DNA of 64,000 nt. It comes from a bacterium. GTDB lineage: Bacteria > UBA8248. Position 1 is the first letter of the stretch, and the number at the start of each line of letters is the position of its first letter. The notes under the pieces are model-generated. The model saw nothing but the letters and a program-made list of their open reading frames with translations, was not told the DNA's origin and made no database searches. Positions 3,900 to 53,994 of this stretch are shown here, in pieces. Location: contig CBDBZU010000004.1 of NCBI GenBank assembly GCA_965213625.1, positions 2,688,001-2,752,000 on the forward strand, read 5' to 3'. Made by a program: the position numbers and the translations under genes.

Positions 3900-3946
3900 C
3901 GGCGTTCTGAGCGGAAATGCCGGGTTTCTAGGCTAAAATCCGGCTG

Positions 3947-3975
3947 ATTATAGGTATGAGCAGGACGGGCGTCAA
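3947..3975 (-). promoter_or_regulatory. Sigma70-type promoter for the multiheme cytochrome gene
   Basis: Minus strand TTGACG (3975-3970), 17 bp spacer, TATAAT (3952-3947), about 50 nt upstream of the start. Confidence 0.75.
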
Positions 3976-4099
3976 CCGTGTAGCGGGTAGTTTTGACTTA
4001 GCGCAATTACGCCTGAATACGGGGAATATATGCTGAAAACACAAGGTGGTTCAGGGAGATGACTGCGGGCGTGTATATTCCGCGTCGTCTCGCCTCGAG

Positions 4100-7000
4100 C
4101 TATTCATTTTGACTTCTGATGATGCCGGCGAGCTGGCCGATGATGGCGATAGAGATGGTGGGGTGCTCGTGGATCAGTTCGAGAAGAGGTTCTTTCTCGA
4201 TGCCCAGCAGTGAGGTGTCCTTGCTCGCGCGCGCGCCTGCGCTTCTGCCCTCATCGCCGAAGAGCGCGATTTCACCGAACGAGGCCGTGCGGTCGAGGGT
4301 GGCGAGGATCTTCGGCTCCCCGTTCTCCTGGTTGAGAATGATTTCAATTTCCCCGTCCACGATAACGTAGAGGTAATCGCAAGGGTCACCCTGTTCGAAA
4401 AGAACTGTTCCCGACTCTATCTGGATTTCCCTGGAAATGTTGCTCAGTATTTTCAGTTCATCCGCGCTCATCGTTTCGAACATGTTGACGCCTTTTAGAA
4501 ACAGGGCTTTTTCGATTGTCGAGAGCATGAATGTCTCCTGTCCGGATTGAATGTCGCCCTCTGCACCGCGATTGCTACGTTCGCGGCGCACCTGGATGCG
4601 CACCAGTTGATTCTCGTCATTCTCCATGGTTCTCAATAACGACTCAGCATCGTCATCATCTTTCCCGATTATTCTCAATGCGGCAACCGCGGCCTCTCGG
4701 ACGTAGGGGTCGCCCTCTGACGCATGCGCCTTGAATTGCTTGCACCACTCGGGTGTCGTTCCATCCGCTACGCTTTCAAGATGTTTCCCCGCCGCATCGA
4801 CGGCGATGGCCTGAAGCCAGGCGTTCCCCGAAGCCATATATGTCGTCAGCACCTTGTCAATCGATTCTTCAGGCATGTCCCATATTTTCCTGCCTTCGGA
4901 AACTTTATCGGCCGTCGATCTGCCCAGCAGCAGAGGTTCTAAAGCCAGAATCATGAGTCTCGTGTTGCCTGCCGAAGAGAAGTTCGAGAGCGTCTCGATG
5001 GCGATCGCCCTCGATGAGGAGCCGCCCCGGGCGAGAGATTCCGACACGGTGTCCACCGTTTTTTCATCCCCTATTACACCCAACAACTCGAGCAGGACGA
5101 GCTGTCTTTCCTCGACGACGTCTTCGAGCGCTTTTCTCAACATCGTGAAGGCGGATGCGTTTTCCCGGCGTTCGATAACGTGAAGGTGGTTGATGACGTC
5201 ATACACCTCCTTCAGGTGCTCCACGGCGAACCCGGAGAGGGAGTCCACGATTTCCTGAGCGCCCATCTCGCGGGAGCCGTTATTTCCGCTTCTGAACAAT
5301 AGCGGGGCGAGAAACGAAAACATCCCGGAGCCTTCGAGAGACAGGGTTCCTTTTCGCTTCATGTTCTTAAGCGATTCGACGGCCTCTCCTCTCACCAGGG
5401 AATCGACGTCCGAAAGAGCGGCCAGAACGAGGTCGAAGTTTTCACGCGAGCTCTTGTTGCCCAGTTGCCGGACGCCTCTGCGCCTGATGGCCGCACTCTC
5501 ATCCGAGGTGGTCACCCGAAGGACTTCCTCCATGCTCTCCTCGTCGACCCCCTGGTTCGCGGCCAGAACTTCTATCGCCTCCAAAGCGGCTTCACGGACT
5601 TTCTCCTCCTCCTGGTAGAGATAGGGAATCAAGCGTTTAATGAAGCGCGGGTTCTGAAGTTCCCCCATGCACCGCAGGGCGCAGATTCTGGCCGCTGCGT
5701 CTTCTTCGTTCAGCATCCGGTGCAGCGTTTGCAGGCCGTTGGCGAGCCAGAACAGATCGTCGGAGCGGACGAGAAGCTCGACGGCGCGCGCCCTGACTTC
5801 GGGTGAGTCGTCTTCCAGGTTTTCATGCACGAACTCTGCCGTCTCATCGGTCAGCCCGATGCTTTCCGCCGCATCCATGGCGGCGCACTGAAGGACGGAC
5901 TCACCGCAGGTGAGGTGTTGTTTCAGCAAAGGTCGCATTTGCTCGCCCTCTTCGGCTCCTGGAGCCTTGGCGAGAATTTTGAGCAACTCGGCCGCCGCGT
6001 GTCCTTCTCGTCGGGGAATTTCTTCGAGAATGATTTGAAAAGTTTCGCTTCTGCCGCTTTCCGCCATCATCTGCGCGGTGAAGACGCAGAGCTCGTCATC
6101 GCCCTCGCGAATATTTTTCCTGAGTGTCGCCATGCTCTCATCGTCAACCGGGCCGTATCCCTCTTGGGCGTAGCGGAACAGCCCCAGGTTTCTCTCCTCG
6201 AGCATCCGGCGCAGTGCGGCGCTGTATTCATGGCGTACGAAAAACCCTGTGGCCAGATAAGCGAAGGCGATGAACAAGGAGATGAGCGCCACCCAGCCTG
6301 CGCTCAAGGGGAATAGGGCGAGGCCGGTGGGTTTGATGATGAGCAGGGCGACGCCGCTGACGATACTTGCCACTGCCACCACCTGGCCTGCGACGAACGC
6401 GCCCACGCGCGCGCGGATAGAGGGGGAGACGGCATTATAGAGCAGGGCGTTTATGGCGTTTCGAATCGACTCCTGGAGGTTCTTGTTGTTGAAGCGCAGG
6501 AAGACGGCGGAATAAAACCCGGGCGAAATCGCCATGCCCGCGAGACCGATGATGGTCGTAAGCGGATAGAGGAGGTTCGCCGTTCCCAGTCCGAGCCGCT
6601 TGATGATGCGCGGGGTGATGAACGTCTGGACGAGCAGCGAGAAGGCGCTACCGATGGCGGTGAAATACCCGAGGAACGAGGCGAGCTGCGCGCGGTCGGG
6701 AAAAGCCTCGCGGAAGACGAGGCTGTACTGGAAATCCTGGAAACTCCTGAGAATCACCACGATGAAACTGAATAGCGCGAACGCGCAGACGTACCGGTTC
6801 GTCCGCATAAGCGCGAGGTTGCCGCCTTTTGAGGCCGTTTTCTTCGTCGTTTTGCGTTTTTTTGGGCCTGCATCTTCGATCAGGTGGTCCTTGAGCCGCC
6901 ATTCGGCGTATTGGACCACCCCGATACTGACGACGATGGCGCCGATCCACACATAGAGCAGGTTCGAGACGCTCCCCAGTACGGGGATGAGCAGCGGAAT

Positions 7001-7510
7001 GGCCAGACCGCCCAGTATGCCGCCATAGCGGCCCCCTGTCAGGATGATCGGAACCAGCCGCTTGGATTGCAAGACGTCCAAGTACTGGCCGTACAGAGCG
7101 CGGAAATTGTTCGGCAGCATGTTCGTGAACATGACGAACAGCGTGTGGAGAAGCGGGAAAGCGATGGGCATCGCATAGGCGCGGAAATCCGCGAATATGA
7201 GTAGCTTGATACCGAAAACGAGCGCGATGAAAAAAATCAAGACGGTCTTGAACATCGCCGGAATCGAGAGTTTTTCGGTCAGTGATGAGTAGAAAGTGCT
7301 GATGAAGATGATCATCAGGGCGTTGAATATGTACATATAGGGGAGAAAACCCGGGCCGACTTCCGAGAGGAACAACGCTTCGGATACGGTGAGCCCGATG
7401 GAGAACTGGATCCCGATCAGGAAGTAGAAGAAAAAGAACACGGAGAAGACGAGCAACTCCTCTTCCTGGATGTTGAACGCTTTTTTGAGGAGTTTCGCCA
7501 TATCGGTCAC
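4100..7510 (-). CDS. NTT/TLC (Npt1-like) membrane transporter fused to HEAT repeats and a C-terminal cyclic-nucleotide-binding domain
   Basis: ~12 TM N-terminal region (ALFLSEVG..LPYMY, QSKRLVPII, FLGYF, RLGLG), HEAT-like repeats (DDSPEVRARAV, EEKVREAAL, DPYVREAAV), cNMP domain (LFEQGDPCDYLYVIVDGEI, FGEIALF..GRSAGARA). Confidence 0.85.
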   Translation of the reverse strand: MTDMAKLLKKAFNIQEEELLVFSVFFFFYFLIGIQFSIGLTVSEALFLSEVGPGFLPYMYIFNALMIIFISTFYSSLTEKLSIPAMFKTVLIFFIALVFGIKLLIFADFRAYAMPIAFPLLHTLFVMFTNMLPNNFRALYGQYLDVLQSKRLVPIILTGGRYGGILGGLAIPLLIPVLGSVSNLLYVWIGAIVVSIGVVQYAEWRLKDHLIEDAGPKKRKTTKKTASKGGNLALMRTNRYVCAFALFSFIVVILRSFQDFQYSLVFREAFPDRAQLASFLGYFTAIGSAFSLLVQTFITPRIIKRLGLGTANLLYPLTTIIGLAGMAISPGFYSAVFLRFNNKNLQESIRNAINALLYNAVSPSIRARVGAFVAGQVVAVASIVSGVALLIIKPTGLALFPLSAGWVALISLFIAFAYLATGFFVRHEYSAALRRMLEERNLGLFRYAQEGYGPVDDESMATLRKNIREGDDELCVFTAQMMAESGRSETFQIILEEIPRREGHAAAELLKILAKAPGAEEGEQMRPLLKQHLTCGESVLQCAAMDAAESIGLTDETAEFVHENLEDDSPEVRARAVELLVRSDDLFWLANGLQTLHRMLNEEDAAARICALRCMGELQNPRFIKRLIPYLYQEEEKVREAALEAIEVLAANQGVDEESMEEVLRVTTSDESAAIRRRGVRQLGNKSSRENFDLVLAALSDVDSLVRGEAVESLKNMKRKGTLSLEGSGMFSFLAPLLFRSGNNGSREMGAQEIVDSLSGFAVEHLKEVYDVINHLHVIERRENASAFTMLRKALEDVVEERQLVLLELLGVIGDEKTVDTVSESLARGGSSSRAIAIETLSNFSSAGNTRLMILALEPLLLGRSTADKVSEGRKIWDMPEESIDKVLTTYMASGNAWLQAIAVDAAGKHLESVADGTTPEWCKQFKAHASEGDPYVREAAVAALRIIGKDDDDAESLLRTMENDENQLVRIQVRRERSNRGAEGDIQSGQETFMLSTIEKALFLKGVNMFETMSADELKILSNISREIQIESGTVLFEQGDPCDYLYVIVDGEIEIILNQENGEPKILATLDRTASFGEIALFGDEGRSAGARASKDTSLLGIEKEPLLELIHEHPTISIAIIGQLAGIIRSQNE

Positions 7511-7599
7511 TTCTAGAGCGCAGGAGGAGGAGCCTTCGCGCGAGTCTTGCCCCGTGAGATGCCTGTAGTGATGACAAACGCGACCCGGCTGATTCTAGC

Positions 7600-9231
7600 T
7601 TAGAGTTTTTGAGATTTCCATGAGTAGAACGACAAGGCGTCCTCCGCCCACTGCGTGCAGTTCCGGCTGAATCTTTCCCAGCGGCTGTTGGCGCATTGGG
7701 CGCGGACGGGGTCTGCGTTGCCCTCGGCGATCAGGCCATTCATCGGCGAGAGGTCGAACTCGGCGCGAACCGGCACCCTGGCGCGCTCCTCGGGCTCGAG
7801 GAGAGTCAAAAAGCGCTCGAAAGCATCAAAGGCGCCGCAAAGCTTCTCGCACAACCGCTCCGCACCTCCCGCATACGCGACCAGGGACGGCGCCAACGGC
7901 GCATAGCGGTTCAGTTCCATGCCTCCTTCCGTGCGGTTCGTGATGCTGTCCACACCGACGACCCCGATGGATTCGTCCGAAAATTCCACAGGGAAGAGCC
8001 TGGCGTAAATCGTTTCTACAACCATTCCCTCACGGCTGAGCCTGAGATGCACGCGAACGCTGAAGAGACCGAAATCGATCCAGCTGCATATGAGTGGCTT
8101 GTAGCGTGCGTCGAATACCTGCTCATAGTTCTCGATGGCGCTCGCCAGGAGGCGAATCGAATCATCCCTGGAGCGGGAAGATTCACGCAGTTCGGATTCG
8201 AGTCTGGGCGCGCAGTTTCTGAGCATTTCCCCCAAAACATCAGGCGAAGCGCCGCCTCTCACCTTTTGGGTCTTGATGTAGGCTTTCGTGGTTGCCGGGC
8301 TGGCCTGGAAGCGATGTACGAGCCAGTCCATCGCTCGGAGGTGATCGGGGTTTTCCGCGTCAAGAGACAAGGGCAGGGGGGTCGCATTGTCCGTCGCGAC
8401 GCCGAGTCTGCTCAGGTCCGGAAGCCCGAACCCGTTGGGGTAGGCGTCCAGCCGGAAACATCCGCGTCCTCCGCCCCCTTCCTGCGGTTTGACGAAGAAA
8501 GTCCGCGCCCCCCATTTCTGCGACAAGGCGGAGGCGGAATCCAGAATGGCGGCGGCTGTGTCCGCAGGCCTTCCTCCGTTTAGTTCCACCACTTCATAGC
8601 CGGCCGTTAGGCGATGCCCGTCCGCTCCGGAAGATTGGGTGTCCTCTCCGTTTCCATTCAGGAGTTCATAGGTGGTTTTCTTGTTGGAAAGCGGCCCGCC
8701 GGGAGCGGTGATAGAGCCCGGCGCCACGACGATTCCCCGCTCCTCCAGAACCCTGGCGAGGGTAGCGTCGTAGAGGCTTCTCTGGGCGGTCTGGCTGATG
8801 ACGAGCAGTTCTTTCGGCGCCTTTGCGGCGCGCGCCAACAGTTCCTCCCGTCTGTTCAGGACCCTGACGGGGATGGACAAACCGAGTTGCTTCAAGTGTG
8901 CCCGCATCACCCGGGCCGTTTCCATGGTGAGGGGCAGTCGGCTCGGGGAGCCGTCCAGCAAAAGGATTTCTCCCGGACGCCGAAATGGTGGAGCGTCTTC
9001 CAGGATGCGCAAGTTTTCGAATCGGGGTTCACGCGACGCCCATCGGTTGAGGCTATCGATCAGGGTTTCGTTCAGATCGCCGTCAGACGAATCGAACTCC
9101 TGGCTCACGCGGTACAGATCCCAGGCGCCGCCGCTTGCATCGGGCGTGAGATTGTAGAGGGAAGGTTCCCGCGCGAGCAGGGGATGGCTTGGTGTTTTTT
9201 GCGAGGTCAAGGTTTCGCTCTTTATGTCCAA
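7600..9231 (-). CDS. Divergent ATP-grasp-fold protein (putative carboxylate-amine ligase)
   Basis: SNKKTTYELL, FFVKPQEGGGGRG loop, and C-terminal EFD...AEGNADP (ExN) match ATP-grasp hallmarks; start overlaps the upstream gene's end. Confidence 0.65.
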   Translation of the reverse strand: MDIKSETLTSQKTPSHPLLAREPSLYNLTPDASGGAWDLYRVSQEFDSSDGDLNETLIDSLNRWASREPRFENLRILEDAPPFRRPGEILLLDGSPSRLPLTMETARVMRAHLKQLGLSIPVRVLNRREELLARAAKAPKELLVISQTAQRSLYDATLARVLEERGIVVAPGSITAPGGPLSNKKTTYELLNGNGEDTQSSGADGHRLTAGYEVVELNGGRPADTAAAILDSASALSQKWGARTFFVKPQEGGGGRGCFRLDAYPNGFGLPDLSRLGVATDNATPLPLSLDAENPDHLRAMDWLVHRFQASPATTKAYIKTQKVRGGASPDVLGEMLRNCAPRLESELRESSRSRDDSIRLLASAIENYEQVFDARYKPLICSWIDFGLFSVRVHLRLSREGMVVETIYARLFPVEFSDESIGVVGVDSITNRTEGGMELNRYAPLAPSLVAYAGGAERLCEKLCGAFDAFERFLTLLEPEERARVPVRAEFDLSPMNGLIAEGNADPVRAQCANSRWERFSRNCTQWAEDALSFYSWKSQKL

Positions 9232-10397
9232 AATACCGATTTGCGCTGGCGCATGAAATGTTTCATCACCCAGTCCGCAATGGCGCCGCCAACCGCGTTG
9301 TCCGTTGCGAGGGAGGAGGGGTTCGGGGCCATGCAGCTAAGAGCGCGTATCCCCGTCATGCGGTATGCCTCCTCGCGTACATGCGCTTCGTTGGCGAGCC
9401 GACCGGAAATGAGCATGTTTTCCTCATCCACCTCCAGGTGGCTTCGTATCCAATGAACGATGAGCGTTGATTCGAGCGTATCACATGCGCAGATAATCAG
9501 ACCTCTTCGCGCAAGCCAGTCTTTGACCCAGGGGTCACTCGCTACGTGTAGACTAGCGTCGGAAGATGGAGAGTCCGCCAATTCCGCGATGACGATTTCC
9601 GCCTTCGCGCTGGCGTGGCGAAGCAGGTTCTGGGCGCATCGTCTGACGCTGTGCATTGAGACGCCACACGTGGAAGCGAGCCCCGCGTCGACGAAATCCC
9701 ACCCAAGTCTCGCGGAATCGAAAAATCCGAGCGGTCTGCCGTAGTTCACCTGCATGAGATCCCGCATGCGTCCCGTTCCGGTCAATTTCACGTATGACAC
9801 GTGGATGCCCGAGGAGTGGAGGGCGGAGGCGAGCGAGGACGCGCAGGTCGTTTTACCCACGTCCATCTCGGAGCCGGTCACCAGTATGATGGGAGCGCAG
9901 GGAATTCCTTCTTCATCCACGTGGCACCGGGTATCGGGGATGACGGGAAGATCGGAAAGCCGGGCGGGTTCGCCTCGCAGCGCGACGCCCCCTTTCACCT
10001 CTATTTTCACGCACGGCGTTTCTGGGTTAGTGCGGACCCCGCAGACGCCGCCGACGTTCAACAGGTCGAGTACGACTCCGGGCTCTGCGGGCGAGTCCGG
10101 TTCGCGCCCCGAAACGCTGCGATTCGCATAGCGCGCACCGATCGTAACGACCATGTTCATTTTTTCCCGCAACTTTATTTCACTCGTCTTCCAGGCGTCT
10201 TCCGTTCCCTGGAGGATTTCGATAGTTTCCAGGCGATTGATGGGCGCATTCTCGGGCGCGGCGACGATTTCACCCAGCGCGATTCCATTTGCGTGGACGG
10301 GCCTGGGGTCAGGCGAGAAATCCGTCTCAAATGAATACGGGCTTTCCTGCGAGAGGAACAATCCTCGGGCGGTGGATGCGAAAAAATCTGTTTTCAA
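9222..10397 (-). CDS. DUF1611-like P-loop protein
   Basis: LVTGSEMDVGKTT Walker A, VKLTGTGRMRD, DFVDAGLAST, IAELAD, N-terminal GARYA..LLNVGGVCG, as recalled for the DUF1611-related family. Confidence 0.7.
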   Translation of the reverse strand: MKTDFFASTARGLFLSQESPYSFETDFSPDPRPVHANGIALGEIVAAPENAPINRLETIEILQGTEDAWKTSEIKLREKMNMVVTIGARYANRSVSGREPDSPAEPGVVLDLLNVGGVCGVRTNPETPCVKIEVKGGVALRGEPARLSDLPVIPDTRCHVDEEGIPCAPIILVTGSEMDVGKTTCASSLASALHSSGIHVSYVKLTGTGRMRDLMQVNYGRPLGFFDSARLGWDFVDAGLASTCGVSMHSVRRCAQNLLRHASAKAEIVIAELADSPSSDASLHVASDPWVKDWLARRGLIICACDTLESTLIVHWIRSHLEVDEENMLISGRLANEAHVREEAYRMTGIRALSCMAPNPSSLATDNAVGGAIADWVMKHFMRQRKSVFWT

Positions 10398-10410
10398 TTT
10401 TCACCTTGTC

Positions 10411-11874
10411 CTAAGCAGGAGAAAGAGCGAGCCGGCGCGTGAAAGTATCTATCATTTCCCGGGCGGCAGGGGATATCTGCTTTTCTCCCCCTTCATAGAT
10501 GGATGAAACGCCCTCGAGCTTACAGAACGCTCCCCTCGGTTCTACTATGGTTCCTTTCGCCGGAGGAGAGCAAGTGACGAGAACCTCATTGTGGCCTTGA
10601 ACGTCACTTAGTCGATAACCCCGCCGGATGAATTCAGGCATTCCATTTTGGATGATATAGATGCCGGGAGCGAGTGAATGGCCGATTTTCATTCGTGAAG
10701 CGCTCGTGTTTCGAATCAAGAGCTGGAAGCCTGATAAATCCGGTCGGCTGAGTTCGGCGAGCAAATCCCGGTGTGCGTCGAGAGCGTCGCCAGACTCCAG
10801 GAATTCGGCCAGATGCCAGAAGGTGGTAGTGGGAGCGCTGCTCTGGATTTCTTCGAGTTCGGTCATCAGTTGCGTGGTTCCCAGCACGCGCGGGTTGAGT
10901 TCGAGGGTATAGGGTTCGTCCTCATGGACGATAAAATCGACGCCGTAAATTCCCCGGTAGCCCGCCCCGGCTATCCACTCGCCGATTTTCAGGGTGAATG
11001 CCTCTATTTTCCGGCGGCTTTCCTCGGATACCAGCCGATACGCCGAATAGTCGCTGCCGGCGTAATCGAAGCGGTGCATGGAACATCCGGGGATTCCCGT
11101 GAACATCACCGAAGGGTGGGACATCCAGGGTTTTCCGTCATAAATCAACCCAGCCGTGCCGACGGCGGGACCGCTAAGGAACGTGCTCGCGATCACAGGC
11201 GCATCGGGCCCGAGTTTTTGGGTGAGTTCGTCACGTTTACGGGAAAGCGCCTCGGCTGAGTCGATGAAGTGCGTCTGATTGCCCGAGGAGCCGATTTTTT
11301 CCGAAATAATCATAACGGGTCCGAATTGTTCAAGCTGTTTGGACCCGAGTTCGCCCAGAGCCACCACGTCGCCCGGTGGGACGCTGAACCCCGCTTCGAT
11401 TGCCTGGCGACGGAAAGATACCTTGTCGTCGAATCTCGTCTTGATTTCCACCGGATTCGCCAGGATGCGTAGCCTCCCATCCGCTTCTTTGGCGAGTTTC
11501 CCCAGAAATTCCGTGGAGCGGTAGGGGATGACGTACCGTGGAGCTTCCCCTTGTGAGAGAAATTCCCGAATTTGCGAACCCAACGCTCCCTCGTACGCTT
11601 CAACGAGCGATGAGTGCGTCCACACGATGCGCTTGTTTTGCCCGCGCTCCACGGCGAAATAGCGCAGACGCCTGTCCCATTCAGGCCCGTCGAGTCCGTA
11701 GTCGCAGGCGATGAGGAAATCGAGGGGAACGATGTTCTCCATGGTGATCGAATCGACCGCGCGCAGTCCTTGGAAGCCGAACGTCGATCCGTCCGGAACG
11801 GCAGAGGTTAATACTTCATTGAAATAATTTTTATTATAGGAGGGCAAGGAGAGAATTCCTTCACCTAGAATCAT
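10411..11874 (-). CDS. ATP-grasp peptide/amino-acid ligase-like protein
   Basis: FDDKVSFR, KIGSSGNQTHFI, GYRGIYGVDF, LELNPR motifs; N- and C-terminal extensions as in peptide-ligase-type ATP-grasp enzymes. Confidence 0.8.
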   Translation of the reverse strand: MILGEGILSLPSYNKNYFNEVLTSAVPDGSTFGFQGLRAVDSITMENIVPLDFLIACDYGLDGPEWDRRLRYFAVERGQNKRIVWTHSSLVEAYEGALGSQIREFLSQGEAPRYVIPYRSTEFLGKLAKEADGRLRILANPVEIKTRFDDKVSFRRQAIEAGFSVPPGDVVALGELGSKQLEQFGPVMIISEKIGSSGNQTHFIDSAEALSRKRDELTQKLGPDAPVIASTFLSGPAVGTAGLIYDGKPWMSHPSVMFTGIPGCSMHRFDYAGSDYSAYRLVSEESRRKIEAFTLKIGEWIAGAGYRGIYGVDFIVHEDEPYTLELNPRVLGTTQLMTELEEIQSSAPTTTFWHLAEFLESGDALDAHRDLLAELSRPDLSGFQLLIRNTSASRMKIGHSLAPGIYIIQNGMPEFIRRGYRLSDVQGHNEVLVTCSPPAKGTIVEPRGAFCKLEGVSSIYEGGEKQISPAAREMIDTFTRRLALSPA

Positions 11875-12065
11875 TACAAATGTCCAAGCGGCTCGGAAAT
11901 CAAAAACACGCGATTTTAATTCGATAGCCTCACGGATATCAACATAATTCGACGTTTCGGCAAACTATTATTTCCCTCAGTGCACTTCTGCAACTCACCG
12001 TGCGCTATGCTAGGATACGGAGCGTCTCGACCCCTATTACCGCCATCAGGCGCGGGAACTGGTGA

Positions 12066-12998
12066 ATGTCCGAAGATAGAATTATTTCTGAATCGGCTAT
12101 TGATTCGGATGAAAACCCCATGATGTCGGACTCGGAACTCAGGTGGGAGAAATTCCGCCGGAGCATGATGCGCGCCAAACCGGCGATGCTCGGTGGCGTT
12201 TTTCTCATTTTGCTGGTTGTCTTTTCTCTTTCGGCTCCTCTCATCGCGCCGCAAAACCCGAGTAAGGTGGACGTGAACCTGCGTCTGAAGCCTCCCGTTT
12301 GGGTGGAGGGAGGAAGCGCGAGCTATATGCTGGGTACCGACGCGCTGGGCCGGGATATTCTGAGCCGGCTCATTTATGGGGGCCGCGTCTCCATTCTGGT
12401 GGGCTTGAGTTCGGTGGTGATTTCGGGGGTAATCGGCATCGTTCTCGGTCTTGTTTCGGGCTTTTTCGGCGGTAAAATTGACGATCTCATCAGCGGGTTT
12501 TCCGAAATTCAACTGGCGTTTCCCTTTATTTTGCTGGCGATCACGATCATGGCGGTCATCGGGCCGGGTCTGCTCAACATCATTATCGTACTGGGGATCA
12601 GTCGGTGGGTGGCGTATGGCCGCGTGGTCAGGGGCCAGGTCATCTCGATAAGGGAGCGCGAATTTGTGGAGGCCACCCGCGCCCTGGGCTATCCCCTGTA
12701 CCGCATATTGTTCATGCAGATTTTGCCGAACACCCTCTCGCCTTTGATCGTCATCGCCACCTTCGCCGTGGCGGGGAACATAATTTCCGAATCCTCGCTA
12801 AGTTTTCTGGGACTCGGCGTTCCGCCTTCGGTCGTCACCTGGGGCGGTATGTTGTCCGAAGGGCGCGAATATCTGCGCGGCGCATGGTGGATGGCGACTT
12901 TTCCGGGCCTTGCCATCATGGCGACGGTTTTGAGCATCAACCTCATCGGCGACTGGCTGCGGGATTACATGGACCCCCGCCTCGGCGATGATATGTAG
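12066..12998 (+). CDS. dppC: Peptide/nickel ABC transporter permease (DppC/OppC type)
   Basis: LGTDALGRDILSRLIYGGRVS, EFVEATRALG, ESSLSFLGLG, WGGML. Confidence 0.93.
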   Translation: MSEDRIISESAIDSDENPMMSDSELRWEKFRRSMMRAKPAMLGGVFLILLVVFSLSAPLIAPQNPSKVDVNLRLKPPVWVEGGSASYMLGTDALGRDILSRLIYGGRVSILVGLSSVVISGVIGIVLGLVSGFFGGKIDDLISGFSEIQLAFPFILLAITIMAVIGPGLLNIIIVLGISRWVAYGRVVRGQVISIREREFVEATRALGYPLYRILFMQILPNTLSPLIVIATFAVAGNIISESSLSFLGLGVPPSVVTWGGMLSEGREYLRGAWWMATFPGLAIMATVLSINLIGDWLRDYMDPRLGDDM

Positions 12999-13028
12999 GC
13001 GTTTTGCTTTTTTGAAGGAAATTTACGC

Positions 13029-14576
13029 ATGAAAAGGGCCTTGTTGTGTGGATTTTGCCTGCTGCTCGTGGCGCTCTCCGCCTGCGGCCGCGAAGCGAAA
13101 AAAGGGCCTTTCACGGTTATCCTCTCGGTGGAGGCCAATACGCTCGACCCTCATTTCGCCACCGCCACCATCGAGTGGAGCATCTTGATGAACATGTTCG
13201 ACCCGCTCATCGAGCGGCGTGGCGATATGACGCTGGGGCCTGCGCTGGCCGAGCGTTGGGAGGTGGATGATACAAAGAAGGTCTGGACGTTTCATCTGCG
13301 CAAGGGTGTGAAGTTTCATAACGGTGAGCCGTTCGATGCAGAATCCGTGCGTTACACCTTCGAGCGGATGCGGGATAAGAAGCTGAAGCCGCGAACCACG
13401 GTGTACAGGCGGATTTTCCTCGACAGGGTGGAGAAAGTGGATTCCCACACCGTGAAGATTCACACGAAGCGTCCGGTCGCCACCCTGCCGGTTTGGATGG
13501 TGAACGCTTTCATGCTGCCGCCGAAGTATTATTCGTCGACTCCGCCCAAGGAATTGTTGAAAAAACCTGTGGGAACGGGGCCTTATAAGCTGGTGAAATG
13601 GATCAAGGACGACCGCATCGAGATGGTGGCCAACAAGGGTTGGTGGCGGGGTGAGCCTGCGATAAAAAAGGTGTTCTGGAGGCCGGTGGCCGAGGCATCG
13701 GCCCGCATTGCGGAACTAGAGACGGGCGGGGCCGATATCATCATGAACATCTCGCCCGATCAGTCGAAAACCATTCTGGCGAGAGGAGAGGGCCTCCAGC
13801 TCAAGGGGACTCGGGGAGGCCGCAGGATTTATCTGGGGATTCGCACGGATCACGGGGTGCTGGGCGATGTGCGCATCCGCCGGGCGCTGAATCATGCGAT
13901 TGATTTCGAGGCCATCGCAAAAAACGTTTTTCTGGGCCATGGCTCACGCATGAAGAGCGTCGTGAACCCCCCGAACGCCGCCCCGGGCATGAAGGCGTAC
14001 GCCTATGATCCCCATAAAGCGAAAGCGCTCCTCGCCGAGGCCGGCCTGAAGGACACGGATGGGGACGGCGTGCTGGAAATGAATGGAAAACCATTTGAGA
14101 TAAAACTTGAAGTGCCTGCATCCAGGTATTTGAAAGGAAAAGAGATATCTGAATTTTTGGCTGCATATTTCCGCGCCGTGGGCGTCCACGTGGAGGTGAT
14201 TCCGCTGGAGTGGTCCGTTTTCCTCGCAAGAAGAAGAAAAAAGACGCTGGCGCCTTTGTATTTTCACGGGTTCAGTTCCGCCTTCAACGAAGAGCTCGAC
14301 CTGGGCGTGTTGAGACCCAACCTTTTCGCAAACCTCACCGCCTGGCGGAACCGGGAGTTTATCCAAAATTACAAAAGATTGGGCCAGACGTTCGATCCCG
14401 CTGAGCGCAGGCGGATCAGCTACCGGATGCAGCGCATTGTTCGCGCGGAAAGCCCTTGGGTGTTTTTGTGGAACCAGTATGATTTTTTCGGGTTAAGCGC
14501 GAGAACGCAGTGGACGCCGAGGCCGGATGAGAGAATCTACCTGCCCACGATTCGGTTGAAAGAAGCGAAACCATAA
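13029..14576 (+). CDS. dppA: Peptide ABC transporter substrate-binding lipoprotein (family 5)
   Basis: Lipobox LSAC, LAERWEV, WTFHLRKGVKFHNGEPF, PVGTGPYKL, VRIRRALNHAID. Confidence 0.92.
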   Translation: MKRALLCGFCLLLVALSACGREAKKGPFTVILSVEANTLDPHFATATIEWSILMNMFDPLIERRGDMTLGPALAERWEVDDTKKVWTFHLRKGVKFHNGEPFDAESVRYTFERMRDKKLKPRTTVYRRIFLDRVEKVDSHTVKIHTKRPVATLPVWMVNAFMLPPKYYSSTPPKELLKKPVGTGPYKLVKWIKDDRIEMVANKGWWRGEPAIKKVFWRPVAEASARIAELETGGADIIMNISPDQSKTILARGEGLQLKGTRGGRRIYLGIRTDHGVLGDVRIRRALNHAIDFEAIAKNVFLGHGSRMKSVVNPPNAAPGMKAYAYDPHKAKALLAEAGLKDTDGDGVLEMNGKPFEIKLEVPASRYLKGKEISEFLAAYFRAVGVHVEVIPLEWSVFLARRRKKTLAPLYFHGFSSAFNEELDLGVLRPNLFANLTAWRNREFIQNYKRLGQTFDPAERRRISYRMQRIVRAESPWVFLWNQYDFFGLSARTQWTPRPDERIYLPTIRLKEAKP

Positions 14577-14577
14577 A

Positions 14578-15495
14578 ATGGGTGCTTATCTATTCAGACG
14601 TTTTCTCCGGGCCATCGTGGTCGTGGCCGGCGTGAGTTTCATCTCGTTCGCCGTATTGTTCCTGTCTGGCGACCCGACCGACACCATGGTGGGCGAGGAC
14701 TGGACGGTTGAGGAGGTCCAGAAACTCCGCGAGGACATGGGATTGGACAAGCCCTGGTTCGTGCAATACGGACGATACGTGGGCAGGGCAGTGCAGGGAG
14801 ATTTTGGAGAAAGCCTGCGATACCGCCAGCCCGCGTTCGAGCTCATCATGGAGCGTCTGCCCGCGACTCTCGAACTCGCCCTCGTGGCGCTGGTTCTCTC
14901 GATTATCCTGGCGTTTCCGCTAGGTGTCGTAAGCGCGACGCAGCGTGGCTCTCCATATGACCACGGGGGGATGCTTTTCGCGCTCCTGGGGCAATCTATG
15001 CCGGTTTTCTGGCTTGGCTTGATGCTGATCCTCATCTTCGGGGTGAGTTTGAGATGGCTGCCCGTCAGCGGTAGAAGCGGCTTGGAACATCTCGTACTGC
15101 CCGCCATCGCGCTCTCTACTTACTCGATCGCGAGAAACACGCGGGTAGTCCGAAGCTCCATGCTGGAAGTGCTCCGGCATGAATACGTGAAGACCGCCCG
15201 CGCGAAGGGGCTCTCCGAGTGGATCGTTATCAACCTGCACGTGCTCAGAAACTCCATGATCCCGGTCATCACGATAATCGGCCTGGAATTCGGGCATCTG
15301 CTGGGGGGTGCGGTAATCGTCGAGACGATTTTCTCCTGGCCGGGCGTGGGGAGGCTTCTCATTCAGGCCGTCTACGCCAAGGATTTCCCCCTGGTTCAGG
15401 CTTCGGTGACCATAACCGCCCTGATTTTCGTGTCTTTGAATCTCATTGTTGATCTGATGTATTCCGTCCTCGATCCCAGGGTGAGACTCCATTGA
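14578..15495 (+). CDS. dppB: Peptide ABC transporter permease (DppB/OppB type)
   Basis: GLDKP..VQY, GDFGES, RLPATLEL, EYVKTARAKGL, ETIFSWPGVG. Confidence 0.93.
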   Translation: MGAYLFRRFLRAIVVVAGVSFISFAVLFLSGDPTDTMVGEDWTVEEVQKLREDMGLDKPWFVQYGRYVGRAVQGDFGESLRYRQPAFELIMERLPATLELALVALVLSIILAFPLGVVSATQRGSPYDHGGMLFALLGQSMPVFWLGLMLILIFGVSLRWLPVSGRSGLEHLVLPAIALSTYSIARNTRVVRSSMLEVLRHEYVKTARAKGLSEWIVINLHVLRNSMIPVITIIGLEFGHLLGGAVIVETIFSWPGVGRLLIQAVYAKDFPLVQASVTITALIFVSLNLIVDLMYSVLDPRVRLH

Positions 15496-16430
15496 GCCGA
15501 ACCGCGTATTTCTGGACGCCCGAATCGCTCCTGCACGACAATGGCCGTCATGTGGAAAACGTCGAGCGCGCCAGACGCTTGACGTCCGAGAGGGTTCTCC
15601 CGCAAGTCCCATTGCTCATACACATGGAGAGAAAGCACCATGACGCTAGTGAGTGGGTTTTGCGGGTGCATGAGGAAGAACACCACCACTTTGTGCGCGA
15701 GGCGTGTGCGAGCGGCAGGTGCATTCTGGATGGCGGAGATACGCAGGCCGGTCCGGGAAGTTATGAGGCTGCGCTCGCTTCTGTGGATGCGGCCTTGAGC
15801 GCTGCGGACGCCGTCGTCTCCAGGGAGGTCGACAACGCCTTTTGCGCCGCCAGGCCGCCGGGCCACCATGCCTTGCCGTTTCAGTCGATGGGGTTTTGCC
15901 TGTTCGCCACAGCCTCAATACTGGTGCGGTATCTGCAGGAACAACATGGCCTCCAGAAAGTCGCCGTGGTGGATTGGGACGTTCATCATGGTAACGGAAC
16001 CCAGCATATCTTCTGGAGCGACCCGGACGTGTTATTCGTCTCCCTGCACCAGCATCCCCATTATCCCGGCACGGGGCTGGCTGGCGAAATCGGGGAAGGG
16101 GCGGGCGAGGGCAAGACGCTCAACATTCCCGTCGCGGCGGGAACCTCTGAGGAAGCGTATCTGGCGAAATTTGAGGAAAGCGTCATCCCCGCCATAGAGG
16201 CGCACGGCCCGGAAGCGATAGTCGTATCGGCGGGTTTCGACGCGCATCGAGACGACCCGCTCGGGGGGCTGATGATCACGGAAGCCGGTTTCGCCCAACT
16301 GACCCGGTGGGTGAAGGCGCTTGCGGAGGACCTCTGCGCGGGACGCCTCGTCTGCCTTCTCGAGGGCGGGTACAATCTCGACGCCCTCGAACGCTCCGTC
16401 GCCGCACACTTACGAGAACTCTCGGCATAA
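15492..16430 (+). CDS. Histone-deacetylase-family amidohydrolase (AcuC/APAH-like)
   Basis: RPPGHHA, MGFC, DWDVHHGNGTQ, SAGFDAH..DPL, LEGGY; TTG start overlaps the dppB stop. Confidence 0.93.
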   Translation: MSRTAYFWTPESLLHDNGRHVENVERARRLTSERVLPQVPLLIHMERKHHDASEWVLRVHEEEHHHFVREACASGRCILDGGDTQAGPGSYEAALASVDAALSAADAVVSREVDNAFCAARPPGHHALPFQSMGFCLFATASILVRYLQEQHGLQKVAVVDWDVHHGNGTQHIFWSDPDVLFVSLHQHPHYPGTGLAGEIGEGAGEGKTLNIPVAAGTSEEAYLAKFEESVIPAIEAHGPEAIVVSAGFDAHRDDPLGGLMITEAGFAQLTRWVKALAEDLCAGRLVCLLEGGYNLDALERSVAAHLRELSA

Positions 16431-16501: not shown

Positions 16502-16554
16502 TTTCTTGTTTGTTGTTTCTCACGAAGCGAATTTTCCATTTCCGGAGGCTGGTG

Positions 16555-17184
16555 ATGGTGGAAACAGCAATGGCGACGCCCAAAGGCCCCAAGGCCTCCG
16601 CGACGAAACAAAAAATCATAGAATCGGCCGCGCGGCTCATCTATCACAGAGGGTTTCACGCAACTTCGCTCGATATGGTGGCGCAATCCGCCCGGGTCAA
16701 CCGGGGGAGTCTGTATTATTTTTTTCGCTCCAAGAAGAACCTGGCGCTCGCCGTAATCGATCACTACGAATCGCTTCTTCATCAAAACTACCTCTCCTCC
16801 TCATTTGATATAGAGGCGAGGGGACGTCAGAAAATAAGACGTTTGGCGGAAGCCTACGCCCGCATGCCGATTCAGGATTCGCCGTGCTGCGGATGCCCGA
16901 TCGGAAATCTCTCTATCGAACTCAGCGCACTGGACGAAGAGATGCGCAAACGGCTGAAACAGGTGTGGGATGGGGTTTTTGCGAACATCGCTCGCGTATT
17001 GGCTCAAGCGCAAATAGAAGGGGATCTCCCAGGGGATGCCGACCCCCTCGTATACGCGCGTTCTTTTTTCTCACAAATTCAGGGCGCGCATATTATTGCG
17101 AGATGTTCACAGGATGAGCCGTCTTTACGTGAGGATTGCGAGCGTGCTTTTATGAGCCTGCCTTGGGTCCGGAAAGGGGAGTAG
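16555..17184 (+). CDS. TetR/AcrR family regulator (NemR-like, GCPIGNL motif)
   Basis: HTH (RGFHATSLDMVA..VNRGSLYYFFRSK); CCGCPIGNL; GGAGG RBS before ATG 16555. Confidence 0.9.
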   Translation: MVETAMATPKGPKASATKQKIIESAARLIYHRGFHATSLDMVAQSARVNRGSLYYFFRSKKNLALAVIDHYESLLHQNYLSSSFDIEARGRQKIRRLAEAYARMPIQDSPCCGCPIGNLSIELSALDEEMRKRLKQVWDGVFANIARVLAQAQIEGDLPGDADPLVYARSFFSQIQGAHIIARCSQDEPSLREDCERAFMSLPWVRKGE

Positions 17185-17186
17185 AA

Positions 17187-18335
17187 ATGAACGGGGGAGG
17201 TCACGAATTCAGAGGCGGAAGCCCCGTGCATTCCCGCAGATGGCGATGGGTTATCTGGTGCGTTTTCTTGCTGGGCGCCGGCCTCGCATGGCTGTTTGCA
17301 GAGCGTTATTTTGGTGGTGTGCATGATCCGAACGCCGTACCCCGCGTCGTCACACCGCGCGGCGACCTCGCCGCCGAGGAAAAATCCAACATAGAGCTTT
17401 TCCGTCTCTCCTCTCCGTCTGTCGTCTACATCACGAGGCTGGCGATGAGGCGCGACAGGTTCAGTCTCAACATGTTCGAGATTCCCCAGGGCACGGGCTC
17501 GGGTTTCGTCTGGAACCATCAGGGGCACATCATCACGAATTTTCACGTCGTCCAGGGAACGAGTTCCTTGCGCGTCACCCTGGCGGATCATTCCGAGTGG
17601 GACGCGCGCGTGGTGGGAGTATCGCCCGATCAGGATTTGGCGGTGTTGTTCATCAATGCGCCGAGAACCCGCTTGAAGCCGATCGCCATCGGCCAGTCCG
17701 ATAATCTGCAGGTGGGTCAGAGGGTGTTCGCCATAGGCAATCCCTTCGGGTTGGATCAGACGCTCACTACGGGGATCATCAGCGCGCTGGGGCGCGAGAT
17801 AGACGGCGTATCGGGCCGGAAGATCAGCGGCGTCATCCAGACCGACGCCGCTATAAATCCGGGCAATTCCGGGGGGCCTCTTCTGGACAGCGCCGGGCGG
17901 CTGATAGGTGTCAATACGGCCATTTTCAGTCCTTCCGGTTCCAACGCGGGTATTGGCTTTGCGGTTCCCGTGGATACCGTGAACAGGGTGGCGCCTCAAC
18001 TGATTCGCCACGGACGCGTCATCAGGCCGGGTCTCGGCATCCACGTGGCCGACAGGGGAACGGCGGAGCGCCTGGGAATACGAGGGGTGTTGATCCTTCG
18101 CGTGCAGAAAGGCAGCGCAGCTGAAACCGTAGGGTTGCGCGGCACGGGCAGAGGCCAGCGAGGCCGGCTCGTGCTGGGGGACGTAATCGTTGGCGTGGGA
18201 GGGAAATCCGTTGCCTCGCTCGATGAGTTGTTGGACGTGCTCGATGAACACAAGGTGGGCGACGTCGTGGAAGTCCACCTGATGCGCGACGGGAACAGGA
18301 TGAGCGTGAGCGTAAAACTTCAGGCCCTGAGCTAG
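17187..18335 (+). CDS. HtrA/DegP-family serine protease with PDZ domain
   Basis: GTGSGF, ITNFHV, DLAV, IQTDAAINPGNSGGPL, C-terminal PDZ; N-terminal TM. Confidence 0.93.
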   Translation: MNGGGHEFRGGSPVHSRRWRWVIWCVFLLGAGLAWLFAERYFGGVHDPNAVPRVVTPRGDLAAEEKSNIELFRLSSPSVVYITRLAMRRDRFSLNMFEIPQGTGSGFVWNHQGHIITNFHVVQGTSSLRVTLADHSEWDARVVGVSPDQDLAVLFINAPRTRLKPIAIGQSDNLQVGQRVFAIGNPFGLDQTLTTGIISALGREIDGVSGRKISGVIQTDAAINPGNSGGPLLDSAGRLIGVNTAIFSPSGSNAGIGFAVPVDTVNRVAPQLIRHGRVIRPGLGIHVADRGTAERLGIRGVLILRVQKGSAAETVGLRGTGRGQRGRLVLGDVIVGVGGKSVASLDELLDVLDEHKVGDVVEVHLMRDGNRMSVSVKLQALS

Positions 18336-27384: not shown

Positions 27385-28287
27385 CTAACGGTTCATGCGA
27401 CCGGGCCTGCGCCGGTTCACTTTCTTGATGTGTTTTGCGATGTATTGAACGAGGGCGGGGTTTCCGATAAGCAAGGATTGCCGCCACTTGCGGGCGGCGT
27501 CCAGGTCTTTCGGTGTGTTCTCCCCGGAGAAGAAGCAATCCAGCTCCCGCCATTGGTTCGTGCGGTCACGCCGGGCGAGTGTCATGCCCCCAGCCTCTTT
27601 CACAAGAATCGCGCCCGCCGCCACGTCCCAGATGCTGGGAACGCCGAAGAGCGTATAGTGCAGGCCTCCGCGCGCCACGAGGGCCTGCTCGTAGCACATC
27701 GATCCGGTGGCGCGTACCTCGCCCAGGTTCTTTTTGAGCGGCCCCGTCGGGCGGAATTGCGTCCAGTAGGAGCCGGGCAGGGCGGCGATGCGCTTTCCGG
27801 TGGGTTTGTCCTCTTCCGCCACTTCGATCCGGTGCTCGTTGCGGAACGCTCCGCCGCCCTCAAATGCATGGTAGATGGTGCCTTTGTCCTCGGGCGTGAA
27901 AATGGCGCCCGCAATTGAGCGCCCGCGCTTCAAGACCCCCACGGAACAACCCCAGACGTGCAATCCGTTCAGGAAATTTTTCGTACCGTCGAGCGGATCC
28001 AGAACCCACAAATATTCGGGCACTTCTCGCGCACCCTGTTTTTTTGCCTCTTCCTCGTCTTTGGGTTTTTCCTCGCCCAGTACGCCATGCGCCGGAAATT
28101 TTTTGTTTATCGCTTTCGTGAGAAACTCCTGGCTTGCGCGGTCGGCTTCGCTCACCGGGTCGGTTTCGGCCTTGTTCTTATAGTCCACCGCCACCTGCTT
28201 GCCGAAAAGCCCCATCAGGATTTCTCCCGCCTCGCGGGCGATTTGAGAGGCAGACTCGGCCAGGGCCTGAGAAGTAGGGTCGCTCAT
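27385..28287 (-). CDS. Inositol monophosphatase family protein (SuhB-like)
   Basis: DPVSEAD, GEE, WVLDPLDGTKNF, WDVAAG. Confidence 0.92.
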   Translation of the reverse strand: MSDPTSQALAESASQIAREAGEILMGLFGKQVAVDYKNKAETDPVSEADRASQEFLTKAINKKFPAHGVLGEEKPKDEEEAKKQGAREVPEYLWVLDPLDGTKNFLNGLHVWGCSVGVLKRGRSIAGAIFTPEDKGTIYHAFEGGGAFRNEHRIEVAEEDKPTGKRIAALPGSYWTQFRPTGPLKKNLGEVRATGSMCYEQALVARGGLHYTLFGVPSIWDVAAGAILVKEAGGMTLARRDRTNQWRELDCFFSGENTPKDLDAARKWRQSLLIGNPALVQYIAKHIKKVNRRRPGRMNR

Positions 28288-32737: not shown

Positions 32738-32863
32738 GTTTTCTCCTTGCGCGTGCTCGATGGACGCGCGCAAACAAACCCCCGCCTTGTCTTGGCGGAT
32801 GGGGAAAAGAGTGTTAAGAGCTATTGCGGTGAGTTTGCCTTTACAAGTGGAGGGATCGCAAGC

Positions 32864-34848: not shown

Positions 34849-34873
34849 TTAGTTATAAGGGATGAGACAGAAG

Positions 34874-49658: not shown

Positions 49659-49661
49659 ACG

Positions 49662-51169: not shown

Positions 51170-51181
51170 AGGGCGGATGCC

Positions 51182-52572: not shown

Positions 52573-52585
52573 TATCAATGAGTTA
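52573..52585 (+). promoter_or_regulatory. Match to IHF consensus in AT-rich ccmB-ccmC spacer
   Basis: TATCAA-TGAG-TTA fits WATCAANNNNTTR; a short motif that could be chance. Confidence 0.3.
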
Positions 52586-53963: not shown

Positions 53964-53994
53964 GCCGCCACACTCCGCATGCCGGGAGTTTTCG

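Follow-up and report, generated by a model that had tools for sequence, protein, structure and literature searches.

The 64-kb stretch analysed here (the window; contig CBDBZU010000004.1 of assembly GCA_965213625.1, positions 2,688,001 to 2,752,000, from a bacterium of the UBA8248 lineage) carries a three-gene chromosomal operon that encodes two ATP-grasp enzymes, here called ligase A and ligase B, and a P-loop enzyme between them. The operon, found in uncultured Nitrospinota and Tectomicrobia, is a real and undescribed ligase cassette. Our preferred reading, to which we give a probability of about 0.45, is that the three enzymes make a short amide-linked compound or an amide-linked tail. An initial annotation of the same DNA had gone further, proposing that a small peptide is built by the ligases, exported by a neighbouring carrier, imported again by a divergently encoded Dpp-like system and deacylated by a histone deacetylase (HDAC)-family enzyme. 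That cycle is conjecture: the ligase cassette and its undescribed status held up in our analysis, and the link to the Dpp/HDAC genes, the N-acylation and the peptide export did not. The initial annotation had not recognised the combination of genes, and search listings of the literature likewise returned no description of it.

Domain scans used Pfam and NCBIfam with their curated cut-offs, and AlphaFold models were compared by Foldseek. Ligase A, the product of the first gene of the operon, appears from its sequence to be an ATP-grasp enzyme related to carbamoyl-phosphate synthetase (CPS) and biotin carboxylase. It matches the Pfam family ATP-grasp_3 above the cut-off (30.2 bits vs 23.2), and the best curated model is NCBIfam PRK06524 ('biotin carboxylase'), which it reaches at 61.5 bits, far under the cut-off of 684. 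Searched against the PDB, the family profile matches CPS, pyruvate carboxylase, PurT and biotin carboxylase at 1e-9 to 1e-5. Across 13 sequences with identities down to 23%, K151, S196-S197-G198, D313 and N327 are invariant and E325 is nearly so; from what is known of the fold, we take these to be the ATP-binding lysine (K151), the Gly/Ser-rich loop (SSG) and the metal ligands (D313, E325 and N327).

Ligase B has no sequence match in Pfam, NCBIfam or the PDB, even at E <= 10 or with the family profile. Its AlphaFold model (predicted local distance difference test, pLDDT, 83.9; predicted template-modelling score, pTM, 0.87) matches D-Ala-D-Ala ligases (Ddl), DcsG, LysX/ArgX and PurT in Foldseek (best E 1.5e-7, probability 1.0, TM (target) ~0.6). 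In 12 sequences with identities down to 33%, K248, G252-G255, G257, R260, D493, E503, N505 and D507 are invariant. Thus, sequence models fail to place ligase B among the ATP-grasp enzymes, and the predicted fold and the catalytic residues do place it there. The model indicates that ligase B is a D-Ala-D-Ala-ligase-like ATP-grasp with large insertions and represents a previously unnamed family. This family comprises 54 clusters, the same 54 being returned by single-sequence and profile searches; every name given to a relative is 'hypothetical protein', and none of the relatives was found on a plasmid. Ligases A and B were also considered as paralogues, and this was rejected because hhalign between the two families gives a probability of 1.7%. 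The initial annotation was therefore right to call ligase B a second, unrelated ATP-grasp, as the Ddl, DcsG, LysX/ArgX and PurT matches of its model bear out. It was also right about the ATP-dependent ligase type of the cassette: both ATP-grasps keep the lysine, the Gly-rich loop and the Asp/Glu/Asn residues. None of the curated ligase families in NCBIfam matches either ligase above its cut-off, and ligase A, the P-loop enzyme and ligase B are all free of hydrophobic segments.

The 391-amino-acid protein encoded between the ligases is predicted to be a BioD/CTP-synthase-type P-loop enzyme. Its model (pLDDT 91.2, pTM 0.91) combines an N-terminal beta-rich domain (residues ~1-140) with a SIMIBI P-loop domain of the BioD/CTP-synthase type (~165-391). 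The best Foldseek matches are the amidoligase domain of CTP synthase (E 6e-7) and dethiobiotin synthetase (6.4e-7), with further matches to HypB, signal recognition particle GTPases and ParA. G181-K182 and K204 align with the GKT motif and the second lysine of BioD, T183 is nearly invariant, and the second lysine, 22 residues after the Walker lysine, is invariant. The protein thus has the fold, the GKT and the second lysine about 22 residues on that mark enzymes of this type. BioD and CTP synthase both phosphorylate an oxygen to drive C-N bond formation. Compared with BioD, the protein has an extra N-terminal beta-rich domain of ~140 residues, and the sequence similarity is limited to ~60 residues (bioD model 23.3 bits vs a cut-off of 83.3).

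The family of this P-loop enzyme has 431 representatives at E <= 1e-3 and 47 at E <= 1e-10, and no curated family or model corresponds to it. Pfam matches on 58 members were weak (CbiA 12, DUF1611 12 (E <= 1e-3), MobB 11, AAA_26 8), NCBIfam gave just weak mobB and bioD matches, and 21 of the 30 nearest Atlas clusters are labelled 'hypothetical protein' and share no common Pfam family. The initial annotation had called the protein DUF1611-like and drawn an analogy with DgcN, which is said to be a D-glutamate N-acetyltransferase. We rejected a DUF1611/DgcN identity. All Pfam matches of the protein are sub-threshold (DUF1611 17 bits vs 25, AAA_26 19.8 vs 27), and the DUF1611 (PF07755) match covers residues 168-211, that is 44 residues round the P-loop, leaving the N-terminal domain unmatched. 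The family profile reaches BioD at 1.3e-6 and the DUF1611 structure 2g0t just at E 0.26; 12 of the 58 relatives match DUF1611, CTP synthase and BioD lead the fold matches, and no DUF1611 structure is among the fold matches listed. The likeness to DUF1611 consists of the weak P-loop match and of some relatives annotated as 'DUF1611 domain-containing'. Since all of these matches are sub-threshold and concern the P-loop, 'DUF1611-like' is too specific a label, and the analogy with N-acylation by DgcN falls with it. In the available part of PMC12363236, DgcN is presented as the key gene of a D-Glu conversion pathway.

The ligase A and P-loop genes are separated by 13 nucleotides (nt) and the P-loop and ligase B genes overlap by 10 nt, which indicates co-translation of the three; 89 nt then separate ligase B from the carrier gene. 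A promoter-like site precedes ligase A, and when 26 intergenic sequences from related loci are aligned, its -10 region falls within a block that is conserved (consensus AtTAgAATCg). A further promoter-like site lies at the end of ligase B, ahead of the carrier gene, and its TAnAAT hexamer occurs in the same place in 21 of 26 related loci and as one-base variants in the other five. Judging from these sites, the carrier gene probably has its own promoter. The tight four-gene operon proposed in the initial annotation is therefore better read as a three-gene ligase operon and a carrier gene, tight for the three ligase genes and not for the carrier with its own conserved promoter-like site. In one related locus (L015, ~11657-11775) the promoter-like block between ligase B and the carrier, AAGTTAGAATCA, is present twice in tandem. 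The coordinates, strands and gaps previously given for the eight open reading frames (ORFs) of the region all proved exact.

A graspetide or other ATP-grasp system for peptides that are made by the ribosome and modified after translation was considered and rejected, as no small precursor-peptide gene was found beside a ligase. The spacers at 11875-12065 and 3900-4099 hold just short ORFs of no evident meaning as precursor or carrier peptides, and nothing convincing was seen on reading the 89-nt spacer, where no ORF scan was made. Rfam models for riboswitches and other known RNAs have no match in the 64 kb.

When a single genome of each species was scanned with the ligase B alignment, 32 loci emerged, of which 28 are close (best-segment identity of ligase B 53-87%) and four are distant (33-35%); all related records come from uncultured genomes. 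The close loci are labelled Nitrospinota/Nitrospinaceae (10), Tectomicrobia (2) or simply 'bacterium' (16). All 28 keep the P-loop and ligase B genes; the counts are lower for ligase A and the carrier (26 each), for the three importer genes (25) and for the HDAC gene (23), and every one of the misses of ligase, carrier, importer and HDAC genes falls at a contig end. The order ligase A, P-loop enzyme, ligase B is the same in every related locus long enough to show it. The arrangement is thus more than chance, as it recurs in all related loci whose contigs are long enough. The genes on either side are also kept in the same order, namely those for a cytochrome c (21/28), endonuclease V (20/28) and CopA (21/28). 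Because the whole backbone is syntenic, including these unrelated genes, co-localisation within the clade carries no functional weight.

The distant loci are labelled uncultured bacterium, 'uncultured archaeon', Elusimicrobia and Elusimicrobiota. In all four, ligase A and ligase B are adjacent and in the same order, at 24-35% identity, and homologues of the P-loop enzyme, the carrier, the importer and the HDAC-like protein are absent near the pair even at E <= 5. A check of co-occurrence thus upholds the ligase pair and does not extend to the P-loop enzyme, the carrier or the Dpp/HDAC genes. The evolutionary core of the cassette is the ATP-grasp pair, which occurs also in Elusimicrobiota and two other uncultured lineages. 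In three of the distant loci a gene for a MATCAP/QEGLA-type carboxypeptidase stands directly before the pair, overlapping it by 4 nt in two; the proteins match PF08014 at 161-166 bits and the QEGLA model TIGR02421 at ~170 bits, against a cut-off of 338.65. Such a gene fits a product with a hydrolysable C-terminal amide bond. The pair is followed in these three loci by a CobA/CobO-type P-loop gene and then by a DUF2092/thioredoxin-like gene, and several genes of the run overlap at stop and start. In L029 the MATCAP-ligase genes are preceded, at a distance of 22 nt, by a nikR gene (NCBIfam 148.7 vs a cut-off of 105), and L032 has a like arrangement. In the remaining distant locus, L030, a gene for the nickel-insertion protein LarC is divergent from the ligase pair.

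The carrier gene encodes a protein with ~11 hydrophobic segments (residues 1-430), HEAT repeats (~475-975) and a domain of the type that binds cyclic nucleotide monophosphates (cNMP; ~1005-1132). HEAT_2 (92.2 bits) and cNMP_binding (73.6 bits) are above their cut-offs, and an FGEIAL...RSA motif at residue 1078, resembling a phosphate-binding cassette, looks intact. For the membrane part, the best that Pfam offers is the major facilitator superfamily (MFS) model MFS_1, below cut-off (E 2e-4, 20.7 bits vs 33.4), and TLC (PF03219) does not match even at E <= 10. By contrast, 26 of the 30 nearest Atlas clusters carry TLC and MFS_1 (score 0.96), which is a lead and not an alignment. The description of the protein as an NTT-HEAT-cNMP carrier thus stands for the HEAT and cNMP domains, both above cut-off; its membrane domain is nucleotide-transporter (NTT)-like by the Atlas lead alone, and the protein counts at most as a divergent representative of the NTT-HEAT family that has a domain for binding cyclic nucleotides (cNBD). 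Peptide export, as proposed in the initial annotation, does not fit a carrier that resembles nucleotide transporters and not known peptide exporters.

As far as the available text of Major, Embley & Williams 2017 (PMC5381601) goes, NTT-HEAT-cNBD fusions are broadly distributed and uncharacterised; Chlamydiae have NTT-HEAT fusions, and cyanobacteria and oomycetes have fusions of both kinds. The family is described there as having no known substrate and as thought to move nucleotides. The protein resembles those in that text in its three-part layout of an 11-12-transmembrane carrier, HEAT repeats and a C-terminal cyclic-nucleotide-binding domain; it differs in that its membrane domain falls short of Pfam TLC, and the same portion of PMC5381601 mentions no link to ATP-grasp genes. 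A literature search for 'NTT-HEAT' found no functional study by title or abstract.

Divergent from the operon, across a spacer of 191 nt (11875-12065; ~190 nt in the initial annotation), lies a unit of two permease genes, a binding lipoprotein gene and an HDAC-like gene, whose dpp-like and HDAC-family assignments were borne out by Pfam (SBP_bac_5, BPD_transp_1, Hist_deacetyl). The OppC/DppC-type permease matches BPD_transp_1 (103.5 bits) and OppC_N (41.7 bits), and its best NCBIfam models are Opp4C (297 bits) and DppC (265 bits), both below cut-off. The NikB/Opp2B/DppB-type permease matches BPD_transp_1 at 159.9 bits and Opp2B, 'nickel ABC transporter permease', at 345.1 against a cut-off of 350. 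The binding lipoprotein, whose N-terminus has a hydrophobic segment ending in LSAC, matches SBP_bac_5 at 288.9 bits and, below the NCBIfam cut-offs, NikA (180) and Opp4A (179). Its PDB matches (GsiB/YliB, HbpA, NikA and DppA) all lie at 1e-44 to 1e-37, so that binders of peptides, glutathione, haem and nickel match about equally. As no NCBIfam equivalog cut-off is reached, the substrate class could be a peptide, a nickel complex, an opine or an acetylated amine. The unit has the binding protein and two permeases of a full Dpp/Opp/Nik importer, but the two ATPases are missing: no ABC ATPase gene lies in the unit, and no oligopeptide-type ATPase gene lies anywhere in the 64 kb.

The fourth protein of the unit appears, from its Pfam match (Hist_deacetyl, 302.8 bits) and catalytic motifs, to be a zinc amidohydrolase of the HDAC family. 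PDB matches include HDAC6 (1e-100), the 315-amino-acid bacterial chain 5ji5 (6e-64) and HDAH (5e-62). RPPGHHA, DWDVHHGNG, SAGFDAH and EGGY are all present, and we take these motifs to hold the catalytic His-His, the Asp/His/Asp zinc ligands and the Tyr. In its binding lipoprotein, two permeases and zinc deacylase motifs the unit is like the Nik/Opp/Dpp/Cnt importers and the HDAH/acetylpolyamine amidohydrolases; it differs from those importers in having no ATPase genes and reaching no equivalog cut-off. In the window, the start of the HDAC-like gene and the stop of the permease gene share 4 nt. In most of the 23 loci that have it, the gene abuts or overlaps the permease gene by one base (by tblastn coordinates), and in a few, mostly more distant ones, the distance is up to ~450 nt. 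The importer and the translationally coupled HDAC-like gene could form a self-contained unit that imports and deacylates an N-acylated amine or peptide, and a link to the ligases is possible.

On the side of the importer, the divergent spacer contains an extended -10-like element, which is the reverse complement of the second conserved block of the spacer alignment (ATccTAgCA). No shared operator is visible in the 26 spacers, where just two separate -10-like blocks, one per direction, are conserved. The proposal that the ligases act together with the Dpp/HDAC genes thus finds support neither in the promoter-like elements, which are separate for the two units, nor in the four distant loci, none of which has a Dpp/HDAC homologue near the pair, and adjacency within the clade is backbone synteny.

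Remote relatives on plasmids provide independent, weak hints that both families may deal with small amide compounds that cross membranes. On a Rhizobium leguminosarum plasmid, a 27%-identical relative of ligase A lies between genes for an Orn/Lys/Arg-decarboxylase-like protein and a C45 peptidase, followed by those for a family-5 binding protein, two permeases, a fused oligopeptide-type ATPase and an amidase. Two Paracoccus plasmids (L033 and L034) carry a relative of the P-loop enzyme, 30-32% identical over the P-loop domain, between alpha/beta hydrolase and ABC exporter genes and near genes for an S8 peptidase and a sigma factor. L033 also has genes for a peptidase-domain ABC exporter and HlyD nearby. 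Of the two Paracoccus P-loop proteins, one bears the annotation 'dethiobiotin synthase' and the other 'DUF1611 domain-containing'.

Table. Genes and promoter-like elements of the ligase cassette and its surroundings, with the gene runs of the distant and plasmid-borne loci (positions refer to the window unless a locus is named)
Feature	Position	Strand	Basis
Ligase A, 487-amino-acid ATP-grasp, first gene of ligase operon	10411-11874	minus	ORF and Pfam
P-loop enzyme, 391 amino acids, BioD/CTP-synthase-type	9222-10397	minus	ORF and model
Ligase B, 543 amino acids, divergent ATP-grasp	7600-9231	minus	ORF and model
NTT/MFS-like carrier with HEAT and cNMP domains, 1136 amino acids	4100-7510	minus	ORF and Pfam
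Promoter-like site of ligase operon, TTGATA-18-TAAAAT	11913-11942	minus	10/12 consensus matches
Promoter-like site of carrier, TGGAAA-17-TAGAAT, at end of ligase B	7592-7620	minus	9/12 matches
Extended -10-like element of divergent importer unit, TGCTAGGAT	12008-12016	plus	read from sequence
OppC/DppC-type ABC permease, neighbour, membership of system unproven	12066-12998	plus	Pfam
Family-5 solute-binding lipoprotein, neighbour, membership of system unproven	13029-14576	plus	Pfam
NikB/Opp2B/DppB-type ABC permease, neighbour, membership of system unproven	14578-15495	plus	Pfam
HDAC-family zinc amidohydrolase, 312 amino acids, neighbour, membership of system unproven	15492-16430	plus	Pfam
Run of (NikR), MATCAP-like, ligase A, ligase B, CobA/CobO-type P-loop and ~710-amino-acid DUF2092/thioredoxin-like/beta-propeller genes	L029 7018-14098; L031 550-7154; L032 1-7084		
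Trio of alpha/beta hydrolase, 350-amino-acid BioD-like P-loop protein and ABC exporter, Paracoccus plasmids	L033 5721-9126; L034 5682-9189		

In the reading that we prefer, each of the three soluble enzymes would spend ATP on activating a carboxylate or carbonyl so as to link it to a nitrogen. Ligases A and B may work in succession on one small acceptor, and the BioD/CTP-synthase-like enzyme could add a third ATP-driven step, for example an amidation or ring closure via a phosphorylated intermediate. The result would be a short amide-linked compound of peptide-like or pseudopeptide kind, or else a short tail attached to a carrier. The NTT-like carrier, gated by its HEAT and cyclic-nucleotide-binding domains, might move either this product or a nucleotide substrate. 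Several points weigh against this reading. What the cassette may make is deduced from its genes. The nearest solved relatives of ligase A (CPS, pyruvate carboxylase and biotin carboxylase) activate bicarbonate, so ligase A may not form a peptide bond, and ATP-grasp enzymes can also carboxylate or phosphorylate. Metal-insertion NTPases, HypB among them, also belong to the fold class of the P-loop enzyme. Nothing can be concluded from conservation within the clade, as unrelated genes are equally syntenic and misses fall at contig ends. The P-loop enzyme and the carrier are absent from all four distant loci, so they could have joined the pair later or simply be its neighbours. The plasmid contexts rest on relatives at 24-32% identity over part of the protein. 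Finally, the carrier has its own promoter-like site and its family, in the available text of PMC5381601, is thought to move nucleotides.

The pair could instead tail the C-terminus of a specific protein or carrier peptide reversibly with one or more amino acids, in the manner of RimK, LysX or tubulin-tyrosine ligase, with the tail removed by the MATCAP-like carboxypeptidase in Elusimicrobiota and by another hydrolase in Nitrospinota. In tubulin, the C-terminal tyrosine that MATCAP cleaves off is put back by an ATP-grasp-type ligase, and the Pfam name of the distant proteins supports the removal half. The gene directly upstream of the pair in three of the four distant loci (PF08014 161-166 bits) and the presence of LysX/ArgX among the fold matches of ligase B both point this way. 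We nevertheless regard such tailing as rather unlikely, given that the 64-kb window has no MATCAP homologue, that its spacers (11875-12065 and 3900-4099) hold no small carrier-like ORF, that small-molecule ligases (Ddl, DcsG) head the fold matches of ligase B and that no target protein can be named. The full cycle of the initial annotation, in which the peptide, possibly N-acylated, would serve as a signal, metallophore, storage compound or pro-drug once exported, recaptured and deacylated, seems improbable. It draws on the divergent arrangement kept in 25 of 28 related loci, with the misses at contig ends, on the HDAC gene, whose translation is coupled to that of the permease and whose catalytic motifs are retained, and, weakly, on the remote ligase A relative that lies beside a family-5 importer and amidohydrolases on the Rhizobium plasmid. 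Set against these are a clade backbone so wholly syntenic that adjacency is uninformative, four distant loci out of four without a Dpp/HDAC homologue near the pair, and separate conserved promoters with no shared operator visible. Nor does the cassette include an acyltransferase, DUF1611/DgcN membership having failed; the carrier is NTT-like and not a known type of peptide exporter, and the importer is without its ATPases in the window.

A role in nickel or other metal metabolism, either as a metal-chelating pseudopeptide taken up as a metal complex by the NikA-like importer or in metalloenzyme maturation by the P-loop NTPase, would account for the nikR genes that stand just before the MATCAP-ligase genes in L029 (at 22 nt) and L032, and for the LarC gene divergent from the pair in L030. 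It would also suit the near-threshold Opp2B score of the permease (345.1 vs 350), NikA as the top NCBIfam match of the binding protein, CopA nearby in 21 of 28 loci and HypB among the fold matches of the P-loop protein. The two NikR proteins, however, are 67% identical and may be a single observation if the lineages are related, and the L031 stretch has no NikR. Moreover, the nickel-type scores in the window are all below cut-off with peptide-type models scoring about the same, and no metal-binding motif was identified in the three enzymes, so that we hold a metal role to be quite improbable. Very unlikely, in our estimate, is a nucleotide-centred chemistry, in which a nucleotide brought in by the carrier would be modified by the three enzymes or built into a nucleotide-amino-acid conjugate. 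TLC in 26 of the 30 nearest Atlas clusters of the carrier, CTP synthase as the top fold match of the P-loop enzyme and PurT and PurD among the relatives of both ligases are in keeping with it, since PurT/PurD-like ATP-grasps and CTP synthase act on nucleotides. Yet the carrier gene is preceded by a promoter-like site of its own, the distant loci lack it and Pfam TLC does not match its product, and the available text of PMC5381601 names no NTT-HEAT member with a known substrate.

Among known systems, the cassette is similar to L-amino-acid-ligase cassettes, which make di- or tripeptides with an MFS exporter (as in bacilysin, BacD/BacE) and whose products typically enter cells by Dpp/Opp. The likeness lies in soluble ATP-grasp ligases that form amide bonds without ribosomes and in an MFS-superfamily carrier alongside. 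Unlike those systems, the cassette does not match the curated models (BesA 22.7 bits vs 750; LdmS, matched by a distant homologue, 26 vs 475), it belongs to a conserved chromosomal clade backbone and not to an accessory cluster, and it has in addition the BioD-like enzyme and the NTT-HEAT-cNBD carrier. With RimK/LysX/tubulin-tyrosine-ligase tailing and MATCAP it shares, in three of the four distant loci, ATP-grasp genes beside a MATCAP-type gene, as well as the LysX/ArgX fold matches. It differs in that no MATCAP gene is present in the window and that no RimK or tubulin-tyrosine-ligase model matches. Search listings of the literature returned no description of a bacterial MATCAP-ATP-grasp pair.

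Beyond the carrier gene lie genes for a 982-amino-acid multihaem cytochrome c (951-3899, minus) and endonuclease V. The cytochrome has three Cytochrom_C stretches and a SoxX-type match (84.6 bits vs a cut-off of 61), and its gene has a strong promoter-like site (3975-3947, 11/12 matches) and adjoins the carrier in 21 of 28 related loci. TetR, HtrA and CopA genes follow the deacetylase gene. The longest HtrA ORF (17136-18335, plus) overlaps that of TetR (16510-17184, plus) by 49 nt, so HtrA probably begins further downstream than this ORF does. The five deeper related loci in which TetR and CopA persist lack HtrA.

Elsewhere in the window, two overlapping ORFs in different frames (34862-35311 and 35257-35946, both plus) match positions 1-104 and 136-337 of the 342-position Oxidored_FMN profile. 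Together they make up a gene for an old-yellow-enzyme-type flavin oxidoreductase that a frameshift has split, be it a pseudogene or the result of an assembly error. Three Ldh_2 (malate/L-lactate dehydrogenase 2) paralogues (28287-29333, 31688-33118 and 55287-56474, all minus), each above 345 bits, lie among short-chain dehydrogenase genes, the first two near an altronate/galactarate dehydratase gene. A cytochrome c maturation (Ccm) cluster (47694-54678, plus) encodes CcmF, a zinc-ribbon protein, an ABC ATPase, CcmB, a CcmC-like protein, CcmH and a thioredoxin-like protein.

The observations can also be taken jointly. The pair would then be the synthetase half of a reversible tailing or pseudopeptide system, working in Elusimicrobiota with the MATCAP-like carboxypeptidase, near a NikR gene 22 nt upstream. 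In Nitrospinota the BioD-like amidoligase and the NTT-HEAT-cNBD carrier would have been recruited into a nickel pseudopeptide cycle, the product would be exported under cyclic-nucleotide control, and the NikA-like importer would recapture the nickel pseudopeptide for trimming by the HDAC-like amidohydrolase. As a whole this account is highly improbable; if it were true, it would give the widespread NTT-HEAT-cNBD carriers their first substrate and physiological role.

To return to the preferred reading of a three-gene ligase operon, if its enzymes make a defined compound, this would be a ribosome-independent amide-forming pathway in Nitrospinota, the poorly known phylum of marine nitrite oxidisers and their relatives. 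It would also add a new ATP-grasp family that is invisible to sequence models, and could provide the first functional context for two large uncharacterised families, the ~350-residue BioD-like P-loop proteins and the NTT-HEAT-cNBD carriers.

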